Source of the DNA: Escherichia phage myPSH2311
Length of the DNA stretch: 64,000 bases
Sequence record: MG976803.1
Strand: one strand, 5' to 3'
The notes beneath the pieces are model-generated. The model worked only from the letters and a program-made list of their open reading frames with translations, had not been told where the DNA came from and searched no databases. Positions 44,591-58,048 of the stretch are shown piece after piece; within the stretch, counting starts at the first letter, position 1; the number at the start of each line of letters is the position of its first letter. The translations under genes were made by a program, and so were the position numbers.

Positions 44591-45214
44591 TTAAATACTT
44601 GGCTTCAAGTCTCCGAAGAGCCATGTGGCAATTTTATCTTGTTCTTCGTCGATATGATAAATCCAAGCGATAACAGTTTCACCTGAGTCCATCTTAACAG
44701 CAATCTGAGTACGCTGATAGAAGCTGTCTTCAGGGCTACGTTTGTTGTAACCTTCCAGACGGTCATACGGACCTTCCAGACCTGCTTTGTCAGTAGCAAA
44801 CACTTCTACACGAACAGGCTTGTTGTTATTGCTGTGTGCGAGAGAGATGCTCGGGAAGTAGGAACCACCGTAACGGAACAGATCAAAGTTGTCTAATGGG
44901 CCGTTTTATGCGGTTTAAAGGCCTTGACCAGTGCATTTGCCCGTTAAATGGCGTGGGGATTTCCCAGTGCGGGTGGCCAGTAAACGTGTTTTGTCTTTGT
45001 CAGTAGCAAACACTTCTACACGAACAGGCTTGTTGTTATTGCTGTGTGCGAGAGAGATGCTCGGGAAGTAGGAACCACCGTAACGGAACAGATCAAAGTT
45101 GTCTTCAGTCCAACCTTCACCAATTGACTTAGCACCAGCTCGGTCATTAACTAAATAGTTAGCTTGACCACGACGAAGAGAACCATAAGTTGCTACGTAA
45201 ATTACTTCTGACAT
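44591..45214 (-). CDS. Gamma-glutamyl cyclotransferase (AIG2/GGCT)-like protein, interrupted by 100-bp insert with 110-bp flanking direct repeats
   Basis: N-terminus MSEVIYVATYGSLRRGQAN resembles YGSL...G GGCT signature; ORFs 44915-45214 and 44591-44803 join if 44895-45104 is removed. Confidence 0.45.
44895..44994. other. GC-rich insert flanked by 110-bp perfect direct repeats (44785-44894 and 44995-45104)
   Basis: Exact repeat verified by reading both copies. Confidence 0.6.
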
Positions 45215-45425: not shown

Positions 45426-45478
45426 AAAACCTCCAGCTTATCCGAACTAGCCTCCTCTTTCGAAGAGGCTAAAGCAGA

Positions 45479-46880
45479 TTACTCTGTAATAAAGATTTTG
45501 ATTACACCACAGATTGCTGCACTCTCAAATACTGCAACAGCTTCACTCCCCTGAAAGAAGGCCACTTTGCCGTCAGAGAAGTTAAACATGTCAGCATCTA
45601 GGTCCATAGCTCGCATATCACCAGCGTCGTTAGTATCTTTAAACAGAACTTTATACTTATTCACAGATAGGTCACTCCTTTGTCTTGTTGTGCTTCAGAG
45701 ATGATACGTTCTACACATTCCATAGAATACTTATCACCACGTTTCAGGAAAGTCACAATTGCAGAGAATTGATTACCAATCATTCGCTGATTAGTAATAC
45801 CCCACTCCTCACACAACTTACGCAACTCTTTACGAGAGCCTACAATCAGAGGCTCTTTTTGTTCCATCATTCCATTTTGTACTAGATCTTCCAATGAAAA
45901 CATATCCATATATCCTTAGTAGTTTACAACAGTGCCATCGTTCAGGGTAAGGCTATTAATCTGCAACACACGACCAAGCTGACGATCACTAATTGGTGCG
46001 TTCCATCCAGAGCGGTAGAAGTTACGACCACAGAAGAACAAGATCACATTACTTGCTACAGTCGAACCGTTTTCAGGATGCTTGATGTTAGCGATATAAT
46101 AACCACGACGCAGATTACGACGGGTTACAGGGTTGATCTCTAACCCTTGCTCTTCAACTTGCATTGTTTCAGGAACAGGTTCCGAAGATTCTTCAGCAAC
46201 TGGCTCGGAGCTTTCCACTGACAGTGCGTAATCCTCATCACCTGCTGGTGAAAATGTTTCTTCCACTTCTTCAACAGGAAGTTCGTATGCAACACGATAG
46301 TCAGGCTCAACACCAGAGAAGCTCTTAACAAACTCAACAATATTGTGAGTATAGGTTTCCAGAGTTGTTCCAGTCAGTCCCGGAGCTGTGTTAACTTCCA
46401 GAACCCAAGCGTTAGTATTTTTACTAATCAGGTCAACAGCACCAAAGTTCAAACCCAGAGCAGATACAGCTTTGTGAGCTTGAATCAAAACCTGATCAGG
46501 AGGCGCATCTTGGAAGTTTGAGGAATAAACCCAACCAGTGTGATGATTTCGAACGTCTTCACGATAGGAAGGATCTTCACGGTAACCATTACGACGAATC
46601 TTCTTCTGAACGTAAGTGATAACACCTTCGAATACATGAACACGCCATTCACGATTGGTGAACGATAAGGGAAAGGTCCTTGGCCATAGCGTGGCGTATG
46701 CATGCATGCATGCATAAATTGCGTGTTTTGGGCGCGGTGAACGACTGTTAAAGTGTTAGCTTGACCACGACGAAGAGAACCATAAGTTGCTACGTAAATT
46801 ACTTCTGACATTATCTATACCTTTGTTGGTTTGTTTAGTTTATCCGAACTAGCCTCCTCTTTCGAAGAGGCTAAAGCAGA
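45479..46880 (-). repeat. Tandem repeat unit 3: truncated ATP-grasp copy (45916-46707), 82-aa ORF (45661-45909), 61-aa ORF (45479-45664), plus GC-rich junction and GGCT-start fragment
   Basis: Near-identical to units at 46881-48246 and 48247-49904; truncated copy begins exactly at codons REWRVHV. Confidence 0.7.
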
Positions 46881-48246
46881 TTACTCTGTAATAAAGATTT
46901 TGATTACACCACAGATTGCTGCACTTTCAAATACTGCAACAGCTTCACTTCCCTGAAAGAAGGCCACTTTGCCATCAGAGAAGTTAAACATGTCAGCATC
47001 TAGGTCCATAGCTCGCATATCACCAGCATCATTAGTATCTTTAAACAGAACTTTATACTTATTCACAGATAGGTCACTCCTTTGTCTTGTTGTGCTTCAG
47101 TGATGATACGTTCTACACATTCCATAGAATACTTATCACCACGTTTCAGGAAAGTTACAATTGCAGAGAATTGATTACCAATCATTCGCTGATTAGTAAT
47201 ACCCCACTCCTCACACAACTTACGCAACTCTTTACGAGAGCCTACAATCAGAGGCTCTTTTTGTTCCATCATTCCATTTTGTACTAGATCTTCCAATGAA
47301 AACATATCCATATATCCTTAGTAGTTTACAACAGTGCCATCATTCAGGGTAAGACTGTTAATCTGCAACACACGACCAAGCTGGCGATCACCAATCGGTG
47401 CATTCCACCCAGAGCGGTAGAAGTTACGACCACAGAAGAACAAGATCACATTACTTGCTACAGTTGAACCATTCTCAGGGTGCTTGATATTAGCGATGTA
47501 ATAACCACGACGTAAAGTACGACGGGTTACAGGGTTGATCTCTAACCCTTGTTCTTCCACTTGCATTGTTTCAGGAACAGGCTCCGAAGACTCTTCAACA
47601 ACTGGTTCAGCTGTCAATGCAAAGTTCTCGTCATCTGCTGATTCAGCAAACTCTTCCACTTCTTCAACAGGCAGTTCGTAAGCAACGCGGTAGTCAGGAT
47701 CAACACCAGAGAAACTCTTAACAAACTCAACGATGTTGTGAGTGTAAGTTTCCAGAGTTGTTCCAGTCAGGCCCGGAGCTGTATTAACTTCCAGAACCCA
47801 AGCGTTAGTACCTTTGCTAATCAGGTCAACAGCACCGAAGTTCAAACCCAGAGCAGATACAGCTTTGTGGGCTTGAATCAGAACCTGATCAGGCGGCGCA
47901 TCTTGGAAGTTTGAGGAATAAACCCAACCAGTATGATGGTTTCGAACGTCTTCACGATAGGAAGGATCTTCACGATAACCATTACGGCGAATCTTTTTCT
48001 GAACATAGGTGATAACACCTTCAAACACATGAACACGCCATTCACGAGGTGTAAGCTGCGAATGCGGTTAAATTGCAATGCGTGCCCAAGTGTTTTTGCT
48101 AAGGTGGGTAACATTTACGCGGTCCATTAGTCGTCGTGCAGTTGCGTATAAGTTGCTACGTAAATTACTTCTGACATTATCTATACCTTTGTTGGTTTGT
48201 TTAGTTTATCCGAACTAGCCTCATCTTTCGAAGAGGCTAAAGCAGA
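46881..48246 (-). repeat. Tandem repeat unit 2: truncated ATP-grasp copy (47318-48028), 82-aa ORF (47063-47311), 61-aa ORF (46881-47066), plus GC-rich junction
   Basis: Protein copies differ at a few residues from unit 1; same breakpoint as unit 3. Confidence 0.7.
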
Positions 48247-48432
48247 TTACTCTGTAATAAAGATTTTGATTACACCGCAGATTGCTGCACTTTCAAACAC
48301 TGCAACAGCTTCACTTCCTTGAAAGAAGGCCACTTTGCCATCAGAGAAGTTAAACATGTCAGCATCGAGGTCCATTGCTCGCATCTCACCAGCTGCATTG
48401 GTATCTTTAAACAGAACTTTATACTTATTCAC
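48247..48432 (-). CDS. Small protein (61 aa), first of three copies
   Basis: 61 aa; copies at 46881-47066 and 45479-45664 are identical in protein sequence, the unit-1 copy differs at two residues; followed by conserved hairpin. Confidence 0.35.
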   Translation of the reverse strand: MNKYKVLFKDTNAAGEMRAMDLDADMFNFSDGKVAFFQGSEAVAVFESAAICGVIKIFITE

Positions 48433-48677
48433 AGATATGTTACTCCCTTGTCTTGTTGTGCTTCAGTGATGATACGCTCTACACATTCCATAGAGTACTT
48501 ATCACCACGTTTTAGGAAAGTTACAATTGCAGAGAATTGATTACCAATCATTCGCTGATTAGTAATACCCAACTCCTCACACAATTTACGCAACTCTTTA
48601 CGAGAGCCTACAATAAGAGGCTCTTTTTGTTCCATCATTCCATTTTGTACTAGATCTTCCAATGAAAACATATCCAT
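48429..48677 (-). CDS. Small protein (82 aa), first of three copies
   Basis: Conserved in all three repeat units. Confidence 0.35.
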   Translation of the reverse strand: MDMFSLEDLVQNGMMEQKEPLIVGSRKELRKLCEELGITNQRMIGNQFSAIVTFLKRGDKYSMECVERIITEAQQDKGVTYL

Positions 48678-48683
48678 ATATCC

Positions 48684-49904
48684 TTAGTAGTTTACAACAG
48701 TGCCATCATTCAGGGTAAGGTTATTAATCTGCAACACACGACCAAGCTGACGATCACTAATTGGTGCGTTCCATCCAGAGCGGTAGAAGTTACGACCACA
48801 GAAGAACAAGATCACATTACTTGCTACAGTTGAACCATTTTCAGGATGCTTGATGTTAGCGATATAATAACCACGACGCAGATTACGACGGGTTACAGGG
48901 TTGATCTCTAACCCTTGCTCTTCAACCTGCATTATTTCAGGGACAGGCTCCGAAGACTCTTCAACAACTGGCTCGGAGCTTTCCGCTGATAGTGCGTAAT
49001 CCTCATCACCTGCTGGTGAAAATGTTTCTTCCACTTCTTCCACGGGAAGTTCGTATGCAACACGGTAGTCAGGCTCAACACCAGAGAAGCTCTTAACAAA
49101 CTCAACGATGTTGTGAGTGTAGGTTTCCAGAGTTGTGCCAGTCAGGCCCGGAGCTGTATTAACTTCCAGAACCCAAGCGTTAGTACCTTTGCTAATCAGG
49201 TCAACAGCACCGAAGTTCAAACCCAGAGCAGATACAGCTTTGTGAGCTTGAATCAGAACTTGATCAGGAGGCGCTTCAGTGAAGGAGTTAGAATAAACCC
49301 AACCAGTATGATGGTTACGAATATCTTCACGATAGCTTTCCAGTTCACGATAACCATTACGACGAATCTTCTTCTGAACGTAAGTGATAACACCTTCGAA
49401 CACATGAACACGCCATTCACGACGTGGGCCTTGGATGCCTTTGGTGTACAGAGGAGCATCCGCAACACCTTCTCGCGGAAGACGAACAGTGATCCCCTCA
49501 CCAGAGTGACCAGTCAAGGTTGCACGTTCATAAACAATTTCATTCCGGTTCCAGTTCTGAGCTACTTCACGATCTACGGTGTATTCAACAGTTTTGACTT
49601 CAGCTAAACGCAGTGCGTTAAATGCTGCAACTTTGTTAGCGGCTCGGTTCAAGGCAACCACAGAGTTCAATACAGTTGCACCGCCAAAGAAAGAATCATT
49701 ATATCGACGGTTTCCATAGTTGACAACAATATCACCAACTCGAGAACGATAACGAGAACCCTCTGATACCAGAGACATTACGTTAGCATTTAAGCGAAGT
49801 TCCTGAATCTTAGTTAACGGGTTACATGATGCGTTTAAGCCTGTTACCGTGGCGTTAAATCGGGTTAAGTCAGTCGTAGTGCGTAGTGACTTGTGTGATG
49901 GCAT
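48684..49904 (-). CDS. ATP-grasp family ligase (full-length copy)
   Basis: 406 aa; C-terminal half contains GAVDLISKGTNAWVLEVNTAPGLTG (ATP-grasp EVN..PG signature). Confidence 0.5.
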   Translation of the reverse strand: MPSHKSLRTTTDLTRFNATVTGLNASCNPLTKIQELRLNANVMSLVSEGSRYRSRVGDIVVNYGNRRYNDSFFGGATVLNSVVALNRAANKVAAFNALRLAEVKTVEYTVDREVAQNWNRNEIVYERATLTGHSGEGITVRLPREGVADAPLYTKGIQGPRREWRVHVFEGVITYVQKKIRRNGYRELESYREDIRNHHTGWVYSNSFTEAPPDQVLIQAHKAVSALGLNFGAVDLISKGTNAWVLEVNTAPGLTGTTLETYTHNIVEFVKSFSGVEPDYRVAYELPVEEVEETFSPAGDEDYALSAESSEPVVEESSEPVPEIMQVEEQGLEINPVTRRNLRRGYYIANIKHPENGSTVASNVILFFCGRNFYRSGWNAPISDRQLGRVLQINNLTLNDGTVVNY

Positions 49905-54235: not shown

Positions 54236-55018
54236 TTACATCGGAGTTAAGATGATCTCTGCTTTGGCAAACTTCTCGCCAACTTCAAGAGTGTCAGAAA
54301 CAGGACGAGGTTCGATGTGCAGTTCGTCCAATTCATCAAGACCTTTAACAGATAGTACACCTGTGGATAGATTCACTACAGGAACCCAGCCACTGGCTAT
54401 ACGGATGTTACCAGAAGCATTTTCAACCCTCATATAATACTGAGGAGAGGCACTTCCGTGCTGAACCATGAAGGGGTTTCCGGGAATGATTGTTTCCAAT
54501 CGAACCGTATTATCCTTTTTCTTTGGGATGATTTTCATTATGTATTATCCACCAAAAGTTCTGCCGACACAGGAATAACTCGACAATAAATAGAAGGTGC
54601 TGTTACATTGCCATCAGACAGACGAAGAGTGATTGATCTGTCAGAGTTGATAGTAACGTTTGGACTTGCAGACACAGACCCTTTGACATACAGGGTTGCA
54701 TTGTCAGGAAACTTAAACACAGCTCCGCTGGGAAGTGAGTTGAGGTCAACTGTAGTCACTTCTTCTTTCTTGTGAGTAATCTTCATATTATTTACCCTGA
54801 ATAATAAGTTTAGATTCGAACAGATCAACAGTATTGGACAAAGGGACAGGAAAGAAAATATCTTTAGGGTTCCGAACACACATTGCAGAATGCTCCCCTG
54901 TTTTTATCCAGAATTTAGGGACTACATCGTCACCAGTAAAACGAAAAACATCTCCATTCTCCAAGTCAGAGAAAGTCTTGGAGGGTGTTTTGCTTTTTGG
55001 TACTAGCTCAAAATTCAT
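54236..55018 (-). CDS. Three tandem small paralogous ORFs (54788-55018, 54538-54879, 54236-54538)
   Basis: Shared hydrophobic-x-G-(D/A/S)-V-F motif about 20-30 residues from N-terminus. Confidence 0.35.
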
Positions 55019-55026
55019 CTTGATTC

Positions 55027-55338
55027 CTATTTAAGTTTGAGGCTAATGTTAAGGTGCATACATGCTCTGTTCTGTACAGCAGCATAACTTCTACCGAGCA
55101 TGTCAGCCATTCTCTGAATAGACATGAACCCAGCATTACGGATAAGGAACTGGTCCTCTTCTTCAGACCATTTAACTCGGATTGAAGCTCTTGATATGCC
55201 GAATTTAGTGCAAGCTGTGTTAACAGCATTCTCCGTTACATTCATAATCTGAGCTACTTCTTGAACCGAGTACTCTTTGATTAGTCTCCGAAGATTTTCA
55301 ATCTGCATCGGAGTCCATATAGTTCTTCGTGCTTTCAT
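55027..55338 (-). CDS. Myb/SANT-like helix-turn-helix DNA-binding regulator
   Basis: Two W...EED...L repeats (WTPMQIENLRRL and WSEEEDQFLIRN) with HTH-like segments. Confidence 0.4.
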   Translation of the reverse strand: MKARRTIWTPMQIENLRRLIKEYSVQEVAQIMNVTENAVNTACTKFGISRASIRVKWSEEEDQFLIRNAGFMSIQRMADMLGRSYAAVQNRACMHLNISLKLK

Positions 55339-56600
55339 ACATCCTCCAATTAATTGTTAAAACTATCAGGGGAGAACACTAGCTCTGGGCCACGCTGTAG
55401 ATATCGGCCTACCTTCCACAGCTAATCAGCTAATATACTCCCCTAATAGTTTATGAATAGGGGGAGGGGACGAATCCTCCCTTATCCTATTAGTTAATAT
55501 TGCATGTAAGATCTAACAATCGGTTGCCTTTGTAGGAATAAGCGTAAAGCCAATCCAGCACTAAACTCCCGCCCCCTTAGTGGGCTGGGTTATTAAAGGG
55601 TAACGCCCTTATGGGCTAGTTACATGAATGTTAGTTTGATAGGAGATCTGAAGTCCTATCTCAAAGGACTCTCGTAAGAATCCTTCACGATATTACTTAT
55701 TCATCTCTCGTCGGCTATCTCTCCAAGCCAACCAAGTGTAGGTTTTCAGTTCTTCAAAGTCTTCTGGAGAGAATAGATACTCTTTGAAGGTGTTCCCAAA
55801 CCACTCTAAAAATTCTTCAGTCATGAGTCCTCATACAGTGATCTGAGTCGTTTGAACGAGCTGAGTTTCAGGAGCTTCTGAGTCATGCCAGGATGTCGTA
55901 GTCGTGATGTTTTTAGTGAGGACCAATTCAGAACTTACGAGCACCACAGCAAGGAGAGTTGACATAAGAGTAACCAGCTTGTGTATTCTTGATTGTTTGC
56001 TTAGACATTTGAGCTTCCTCTTGTTAGTTTAGGTAAACCACCCCAATCACTGCTGCACTCATTCATGTGGAATGCAGATGGGAAAAGTAATTAAAGGTGA
56101 TTTACCTAAAACAACAAAGGCCACCCGAAGCCAGCTAAGCTACTGACATTGCATGAATCCAAAAGCCTTCCAGTTTCAGAGCACCATTAGCTACTGCATC
56201 CATACGTTCAGGGCGGTTCATACGTTTGGTTGATACTTTCATACCTATCTCTCTTTGTTAGTGGAGGCATTATTGCCAGTTGATATAAGGGATAGCCCTA
56301 GTCAGTAGACTAATCCTGACCGCGTACTCATTGCCGACCTTCTCTGCCTAAGAGTTCAGGTTCTAGAGCTATCTCTTATTCCAACTGGTGAAGACTCCCT
56401 ACCCCTAGGAAGTCTCCTGAATCCCAAACTAATACGTACCCCTACATATCAGAAAGTCTTTCGAAAATTAACAGGTTTTAGTCTAGCACCGGATGTTCGA
56501 GCAAGCTCTCCCTAGCGGTGTGGCATATGCCTGAATTAATAAGTTAATGAGGAACACCCTCACATAGCCCTCTGATAAACACAAGGGCTATAAGTCGATG

Positions 56601-57620
56601 TTACTTTTGAGTCAAACACAGATCGGGACGTGGCATAACAGTGGTTGATAGACCGAAGACTTCAACATAACCGCTGCTCAAGTTAGCAGCCTTACGCAAA
56701 CCGTCAGAGGTCTTATCTTCTAGCATCAGCCAGAAACGTTTATCGTAAGAGAAAACATCACCGCCCTTAACATCTTCTGCATTTGCATATTTAGGATAAT
56801 CAACTACTTTAATTTCCATTCACTTACCTTTATTAGTAATTACTGCATCTGGGATAAGGATTACAGGAAGATTTGAATTAAGCTTCATAACCTGATTAGT
56901 TCTTAAACCAAGCACAACTGTTCCAGAATCTTTCCTGTTCGACTCGGTTACGTGTGGAGTGAATAAACTAACAACCAAATAGTGATCGACGCATGTAGAT
57001 TTAACTTGGAATACATCTCCAAGCTTTAAATCACCCACTGTAAGATCTGGGTCTTTCATCTCAAGATCAATCTTCATCTTTAGCCTCTATGTTGGTTATG
57101 TGAAGATCACTACGTACTTGGCAGACTTCATCCCGTTTAAAAGGCATGAGCTTTCCAGTTACCACATCAACACAGTTGACATAATTGTCTGCGTACAATG
57201 TGTCGGTTCTGATGTAAAGGGATTCTTTACGCTCAAACAGAACCCCCGGCTTCATGTTATTTAAGCGAAGCATTGTACGATCGGATTTAATATTAACTTT
57301 CATCTTTAATCCACCTTATTGGTAAGTCGAGCATTATCAACTACCTGAACAACAGTATCTTTTCTCAACATTGTTATTCTATCCGAAGTGAGATCTACTA
57401 CTACTCTTTCGTCAGGCTTCCAACTAGCTGAATAAACGGTTGAGGAATCTAGCTTTACTGTAAGATATATTTTATTTTTAGGTGGAACAGTTTCAAAAAC
57501 ACTCCCCACCTTCAGGTCTTTCAGTTGCTTGACTACAGGGGCTGTATTAATATCATGCTTCATTGTTAATCTCCTGCTGTTTAGCAATAGCCACTCGCAA
57601 GTCTTCATTAGCACGAGCAA
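56601..57620 (-). CDS. Four tandem small paralogous ORFs (57306-57620, 57067-57303, 56820-57077, 56601-56819)
   Basis: Each 70-105 aa with (D/N)(L/V/M)K.G(D/S/V)(V/L)F motif; same family as 54236-55018. Confidence 0.35.
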
Positions 57621-58048
57621 GGCGTAACACTTCGTGGTTGAGGTTCTGAAGACGCTTGTTTCTGTCCTCTACTTGCATAATAAGATCGTTAAGTGTTACT
57701 TTAACTTTCTCATTATACATCTCATCCACTCGAACTAGGGATTTATACATTCTTTCCCAGCTTGCTGCTTTGTTTCTGAGAACAATAAATCCTAGAACAC
57801 TGATAGTTAAACAGCTTACAAAAAGGAATTTATATACTTCTAAAGTCATATTATTTACCCTTTATCAGAGATTAAAAGTAATATTATTTAAGTAAGTTAT
57901 ATTTAGTAAACTTATTTTCTAAGAAATTTTCAAAGGGTCTATATACAGAGCATTACCCATAGTCCCAGAATACTACCATCTTTTTCAATAAATTTACTAA
58001 GTGGTTGGTTTATAAAGGAATTTAGTTTGTCAAATCTGGCACTAGTGA

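Follow-up and report, generated by a model that had tools for sequence, protein, structure and literature searches.

Seven small open reading frames (ORFs) on the minus strand of Escherichia phage myPSH2311 (sequence record MG976803.1) are genuine protein-coding genes under selection and belong to a single homologous family. The 64,000-nucleotide stretch that was analysed, referred to below as the window, represents the genome of a Kuravirus, a phiEco32-like E. coli podophage of the Gordonclarkvirinae. An earlier note on this DNA had proposed these ORFs as paralogues, and profile searches bore this out. Hidden Markov models (HMMs) were built from six members at a time and searched against a background of 300 real window ORFs and 1500 shuffled sequences; the left-out seventh ranked first of 1800 every time, with E-values between 0.013 and 4e-9. 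An independent profile (A4), built solely from 120 non-Kuravirus metagenomic proteins, picked out these seven and no other window ORF, with E-values of 2.9e-18 to 1e-6; the following match, at 0.27, was a shuffled sequence. An iterated profile search returned zero decoys, and the window contains no eighth member. The seven members, designated A to G, are listed here with their phiEco32 equivalents, which were assigned by synteny.

Member A, 54236-54538, minus strand: 100 amino acids (aa); phiEco32 counterpart gp96/gp95 (hybrid); independent-profile E 1.5e-12.
Member B, 54538-54786, minus strand: 82 aa; phiEco32 gp97 orthologue; phrog_7832 (1.5e-29); independent-profile E 7.3e-14.
Member C, 54788-55018, minus strand: 76 aa; phiEco32 gp98 orthologue; phrog_10911 (9.3e-40); independent-profile E 1e-6.
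Member D, 56601-56819, minus strand: 72 aa; phiEco32 gp113 orthologue; phrog_6570 (2.7e-31); independent-profile E 2.2e-12.
Member E, 56820-57077, minus strand: 85 aa; phiEco32 gp114 orthologue; phrog_9955 (2e-42); independent-profile E 8.2e-9.
Member F, 57067-57303, minus strand: 78 aa; phiEco32 gp115 orthologue; phrog_16423 (3.7e-49); independent-profile E 2.9e-18.
Member G, 57306-57563, minus strand: 85 aa; no phiEco32 counterpart, found in phage Paul and others; phrog_9955 (6.3e-13).

All seven ORFs exist where the earlier note had placed them, with two start codons that it had set too far upstream. The start of member B was moved from 54879 to 54786, an ATG giving the 82 aa found in phiEco32 gp97 (100% amino-acid identity) and other orthologues; the GTG start (54538-54879), which creates a 92-nucleotide (nt) overlap with the upstream gene, was rejected. 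The start of member G was moved from 57620 to 57563, where an ATG follows AGGAG and yields 85 aa as in the orthologues, and the TTG start (57306-57620) was rejected in its favour.

The seven proteins are only 15-29% identical to one another. Pairwise BLASTP was significant for E and G (7e-6), marginal for F and G (3e-3) and weak for the remaining pairs, and comparison of shallow subfamily profiles (hhalign) was convincing only for E and G (97% probability) and D and F (73%). Since these scores were mostly insignificant, they were replaced by the leave-one-out and independent-profile tests. Member F is nearest to the family consensus and member C is the most divergent, its N-terminal half alone aligning to the family profile (hmmalign). 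Each protein matches its own PHROG (1e-24 to 1e-49) and cross-matches others, all labelled "unknown function"; when 135 family members were compared, cross-matches were found to phrog_6570 (121/135), phrog_7832 (115/135) and phrog_7431 (103/135).

The motif on which the family had been proposed is looser than GDVF: the G and F of G-x-[V/L/P]-F are invariant, and the exact GDVF sequence occurs in three of the seven. The pattern [LIVM]xxGx[VLIP]F was found within the first 40 residues of 9 of the 300 window ORFs, as compared to 1.67 ± 1.2 in shuffled sequences (maximum 5), and seven of these nine ORFs are the genes described here. Comparison with nine related phages gave ratios of nonsynonymous to synonymous substitution (dN/dS) of 0.06-0.47 for every member with orthologues (D, 0.10-0.38; F, 0.06-0.32; G, 0.09 against the 93% identical Paul orthologue), indicating that the members are translated genes under purifying selection.

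It is very improbable that the resemblance reflects chance or composition, or that these are dead remnants among short beta-rich ORFs in AT-rich early DNA: although most pairwise and shallow profile scores are insignificant, member A is a deletion hybrid, neighbouring phages contain truncated copies of 41-61 aa and the first profile gave spurious matches to some giant repeat proteins, this explanation is refuted for the family as a whole by the first rank of all seven in the leave-one-out test, by independent-profile E-values of 1e-6 or better with no decoy below 0.27, by the absence of decoys from the iterated search, by dN/dS values far under 1 wherever a gene has orthologues and by the confident cores of the AlphaFold2 models.

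The family extends far beyond this phage. A HMMER search, exhaustive over 1.84 billion representatives, returned no fewer than 704 clusters from uncultured phages (50% identity; E ≤ 1e-3), which in nearly every case consist of proteins of 67-90 residues that match from end to end; about 12 members are two-domain tandem fusions of 129-162 aa. The family is a widespread, unnamed group of single-domain proteins of about 70-85 residues. PHROGs treat its members as separate unannotated families, whereas they form one superfamily with a common predicted fold across about nine "unknown function" groups (phrog_6570, 7832, 7431, 9955, 16423, 10911 and 12612, plus 8365 and 34455). Neither the seven proteins nor the 135 family members matched Pfam or NCBIfam, including the KOW and ribosomal L2/EF-P family models; no PDB chain matched the family profile in a sequence search; PADLOC, whose comparison covered defence-system models, gave no meaningful match; and the literature search found no description of the family and no functional test of its members. 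These negative results indicate that the family is undescribed. Its distant members are encoded on AT-rich uncultured contigs amid many small unannotated genes, with one or two copies per sampled stretch. Three of these contigs were examined, and genes of phage families, among them a sigma factor and YonG_N, are present on two. A tblastn search of cultured phages with the family consensus recovered only Kuravirus-like genomes with weak E-values and is too insensitive to map the spread of the family. Four giant repeat proteins (7573, 2710, 1315 and 504 aa) were rejected as members; they contain immunoglobulin-like or cadherin repeats, match profile positions 18-56 only and are unmatched by the non-Kuravirus profile.

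The predicted fold of the family is a small SH3-like beta-barrel. AlphaFold2 produced models of five strands for member E (predicted local distance difference test, pLDDT, 79.3) and six strands for member F (pLDDT 85.9). As anticipated from the sequence by the earlier note, the models are beta-rich; they are built of five or six antiparallel strands, lack a long helix and superpose on known SH3-like domains. Structural neighbours include the SH3-like domain of uL2, domain I of EF-P/eIF5A, Spt5 KOW, Tudor and PWWP domains, FeoA, the C-terminal domains of DtxR and UvrD, CarD and the VapX antitoxin. The models make the fold class clear without pointing to a specific function. None of the SH3-like domains of uL2, EF-P/eIF5A, Spt5 KOW, Tudor/PWWP, FeoA or DtxR has a detectable sequence relationship to the family, and these known domains are parts of larger proteins, unlike the standalone phage proteins. 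The KOW motif and basic RNA-binding residues are not present in the phage family. Several of its aromatic positions are conserved (F23, Y30, and Y/F at 25 and 29), and Pfam gave no Tudor match. Foldseek searches of viral models (BFVD) retrieved other Kuravirus paralogues first and then small proteins of other lytic phages, namely N4 Gp21, ORFs of Escherichia phage EP335, PaP3 ORF.65 and proteins of Pseudomonas phage tf and Serratia phage Hera (E 1e-3 to 1e-2). These are uncharacterised proteins of similar length with template modelling (TM) scores of 0.55-0.7, and for the non-Kuravirus ones the likeness is a structural one between predicted models.

Alignment of the 135 members located the conserved columns (M1-K2-I3, G20, F23, Y30, [MI]31, [KR]32, T33, V45, L47, G50 and V61) in the hydrophobic core and at turn glycines, and no constellation of catalytic-type residues was found among them. 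An insertion of variable length separates strand 2 (Y-[IM]-[KR]-T) from strand 3 (N-A-V-N-L); this is where the seven proteins differ most, and their surface residues are variable too. All seven are soluble, with isoelectric points (pI) of 5.2-6.7 except for member G, the sole basic member (pI 9.3); the family median is 5.3, 64% of the distant members are acidic and 7.5% of the family have a pI above 8. A conserved core lacking catalytic-type residues, a variable loop and this pI profile fit a non-enzymatic binding module whose specificity would reside in loops and surface.

The only cellular relatives of the family are SprT-like proteins. Bacteroidota SprT-like proteins (PF10263) of about 200 residues contain a single C-terminal copy of the family domain, and a protein from a Tenacibaculum metagenome-assembled genome combines an N-terminal SprT-like domain with five repeats of it. 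The family profile matched the SprT C-terminal domain of about 50 residues with domain E-values of 4e-8 to 2e-5, and the five-repeat protein reached 3e-8 against the whole library. The SprT-linked domain has the pattern G-S-x-F ... Y ... C-L-x-L ... Y-L-F ... V. It comes attached to a metalloprotease, its loop is rich in K/R (KRGKKRRTRY) and it is found in a chromosomal housekeeping context, whereas the phage proteins are standalone, mostly acidic and devoid of protease. The window proteins (72-100 aa) had no PF10263 match, and the relation is limited to the C-terminal appendage of the cellular proteins. This appendage appears to be undescribed. One example with a single basic domain copy is encoded on a Bacteroidota chromosome (contig L016, 4001-4594).

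To follow the number of copies, ten related phages were scanned, with the following results.

Bas93: 1 member.
LAMP: 3 members.
The window, myPSH1131 and IMEP8: 7 members each.
Paul, WFI101126 and SR02: 8 members each.
phiEco32: 9 members.
Ptacy1532: 10 members.
EP335: 11 members.

At least 80% of a cluster was present in 8 of 75 phage records for one cluster and in 19 of 72 for the other, with identities from 67% to 100%. Most copies are probably accessory, as a copy number of 1-11 among related phages would suggest. The gp96-type member is the sole one kept in all ten phages, including the small-genome clade (Bas93 and LAMP). In the window, the gp96-type gene is the one altered by an in-frame fusion (54236-54538; Bas93 counterpart, L013 9068-9313). 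Member A is an in-frame deletion hybrid, in which residues 1 to about 69 are gp96-like (phrog_7431, 6.2e-24, residues 1-69) and residues 76-100 correspond to gp95-like C-terminal strands (phrog_12612, 4.5e-8, residues 76-100).

gp95-like tail of member A, 54239-54313, minus strand: residues 76-100, EPRPVSDTLEVGEKFAKAEIILTPM, aligning with the 3' end of phiEco32 gp95 (...GEKFIKAEIILTS).

DNA alignment with myPSH1131 and phiEco32 displays the deletion that joined the gp96-type and gp95-type genes, indicating that the paralogues recombine. About 2.4 kb of phiEco32 sequence is also missing between the two clusters, both here and in myPSH1131; it comprises gp102-111, a tRNA-Arg gene and the family members gp104 and gp109. 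The 1.26 kb left between the clusters (55339-56600) contains tiny ORFs only, with no tRNA and no Rfam match, and is composed of remnants of the phiEco32 gp100/101 region and of the region upstream of gp113.

The earlier note had interpreted the genes as a lineage-specific tandem expansion. They are paralogous and vary in number, and the family is not specific to this lineage, as its many clusters and its SprT relative demonstrate. Co-resident paralogues are not each other's closest relatives in most cases: for A, B, C, D and F, between 34 and 95 of the 120 non-Kuravirus members outscore the best co-resident paralogue, with the caveat that consensus-like outside members act as hubs that score well against everything, so that these values are no proof of horizontal transfer. 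E and G are the sole mutual nearest relatives among the seven and look like a local duplication. Judged from these sequence comparisons, the array is not a recent in-situ expansion; it either is ancient or was put together from genes that phages have in common.

[quoted passage not shown] The members are syntenic with phiEco32 gp95-98 and gp113-115, which the literature places in this class. By synteny and literature, the seven genes are thus assigned to the early gene block, as the earlier description of them as small early proteins had supposed. Upstream of them, two sigma-70-like sites matching 11 of 12 positions were found on the minus strand, at 62636-62608 (TTGACA-17-TATAGT) and 62185-62157 (TTGACA-17-CATAAT). 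Their positions correspond to those of the early promoters of phiEco32 and SU10. The promoter-like sites are separated from the paralogue clusters by strong terminator-like hairpins (58513-58494 and 59992-59965), so that read-through or internal promoters would be needed.

The function that we favour, with a little less than even confidence, is that the members are SH3-like binding proteins without enzymatic activity, made early in infection and accessory rather than essential. According to this model, the barrel scaffold would stay constant while loop and surface change from one paralogue to the next, and each paralogue would thereby recognise a different macromolecule of the host or of its defences; such binding would modulate the takeover of the host or work against its immunity. 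The majority of copies would be dispensable, and phages would gain, lose and recombine them. A role in host takeover or anti-defence, as the earlier note had envisaged, is plausible. The binder model fits a report that the Gordonclarkvirinae show remarkable resistance to nearly all of the defence systems tested, although no inhibitor is known from them (PMC11990801).

Several points weigh against this model. The members match no characterised protein, defence component or solved structure, and the binding and counter-defence steps are ones that we infer. The authors of the BASEL study tentatively credit resistance to restriction-modification to DNA modification, not to small proteins (PMC11990801). 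Bas93, with its single copy, belongs to the same resistant group, and copy number does not obviously track resistance. The promoter scan was not enriched over shuffled sequences (28 sites found, 25 expected). Finally, the strongly basic loop of the SprT-fused cellular relative points to binding of nucleic acid over protein.

This last point leads to an alternative that we regard as rather unlikely, in which the members attach to RNA or DNA, or to components of gene expression such as RNA polymerase (transcription) or the ribosome (translation), and help to redirect host gene expression early in infection. SprT/Spartan-type proteases are DNA-dependent, and one of the SprT-like relatives carries the domain in five repeats. 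The nature of the structural neighbours (SH3-like, KOW and Tudor-like modules) and the basic pI of member G agree with such a role, and the phage rewires transcription via its own sigma factor and gp79. However, six of the seven members are acidic, as are most distant ones, and the basic loop is not conserved in the phage members. The similarity in fold is generic and is not accompanied by a KOW, Tudor or S1-type match in Pfam.

As a sub-case of counter-defence, the proteins could act in the manner of the antitoxin VapX, as decoys that bind and neutralise the toxins of toxin-antitoxin or abortive-infection systems of the host. This is quite improbable. Its sole basis is the generic structural match to VapX of Haemophilus influenzae (PDB 6zn8 chain F), and dozens of SH3-like domains unrelated to it match at least as well; the sequences are 10% identical, there is no sequence-level link, no VapD-type or other toxin gene adjoins the members and PADLOC gave no match.

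The binder model can be taken further, to a phage-wide scaffold with a conserved SH3-like core and a hypervariable loop, shuffled as cassettes and fusions, from which the Gordonclarkvirinae would have built a multi-copy counter-defence arsenal in which every paralogue would neutralise its own defence or host factor. In this extended form it is distinctly unlikely; if true, the arsenal would contribute to the unexplained broad resistance of this subfamily to bacterial immunity.

Small accessory families abound in phage early regions, and the finding is unsurprising in kind. In existing records the genes are called "hypothetical proteins", and they are spread across several PHROGs that have no annotation. 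What is new is their unification into one superfamily of at least 704 clusters, its predicted SH3-like fold, the SprT-protease relative and a copy number of 1-11 within a defence-resistant subfamily. The superfamily could justify a new domain-family entry, and its members provide a defined candidate set for screens of host takeover and counter-defence in Kuraviruses that are used in therapy, ES17 for example.

Within the window, the genes form two tightly packed runs (A-C and D-G) flanking a 103-residue helix-turn-helix (HTH) protein with a sigma-70 region-4-like match. Members A and B have a single base in common, D and E abut, the start of E overlaps the end of F by 11 nt, and gaps of 1-2 nt separate the remaining neighbours within the clusters. 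The genes adjoining the members are other family members, the HTH regulator and unannotated small genes, and Rfam and tRNA scans of the region gave no match. The closest relatives of the region are myPSH1131 and ES17, at about 99% identity overall and 100% across both gene clusters. The ORF at 57553-57849 (minus strand, 98 aa), a coiled-coil-like protein orthologous to phiEco32 gp116, is labelled "DNA helicase" in several records. In the EcoN5 and IMEP8 records, the orthologue of member G is also labelled "DNA helicase" and that of member F "endolysin". None of these labels has Pfam support, and they are likely to be propagated mis-annotations.

Elsewhere in the window, three copies of a unit of about 1.4 kb, sharing 90-98% identity, follow one another in tandem (45435-49426; minus-strand ORFs 45916-46707, 47318-48028 and 48684-49904). 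The unit comprises the 3' two-thirds of an ATP-grasp (RimK-like) gene and the adjoining start of a gamma-glutamyl-cyclotransferase-like gene, and the ATP-grasp gene is complete (406 aa) only in the copy at 48684-49904. A single copy is found in related phages, 5.8 kb of the window mapping to about 3 kb of their genomes. The three copies may reflect either a genuine triplication of part of the locus or strain variants that were assembled together. An exact 110-nt direct repeat (44785-44894 and 44995-45104, spaced by 210 nt) lies just downstream of the triplicated unit.

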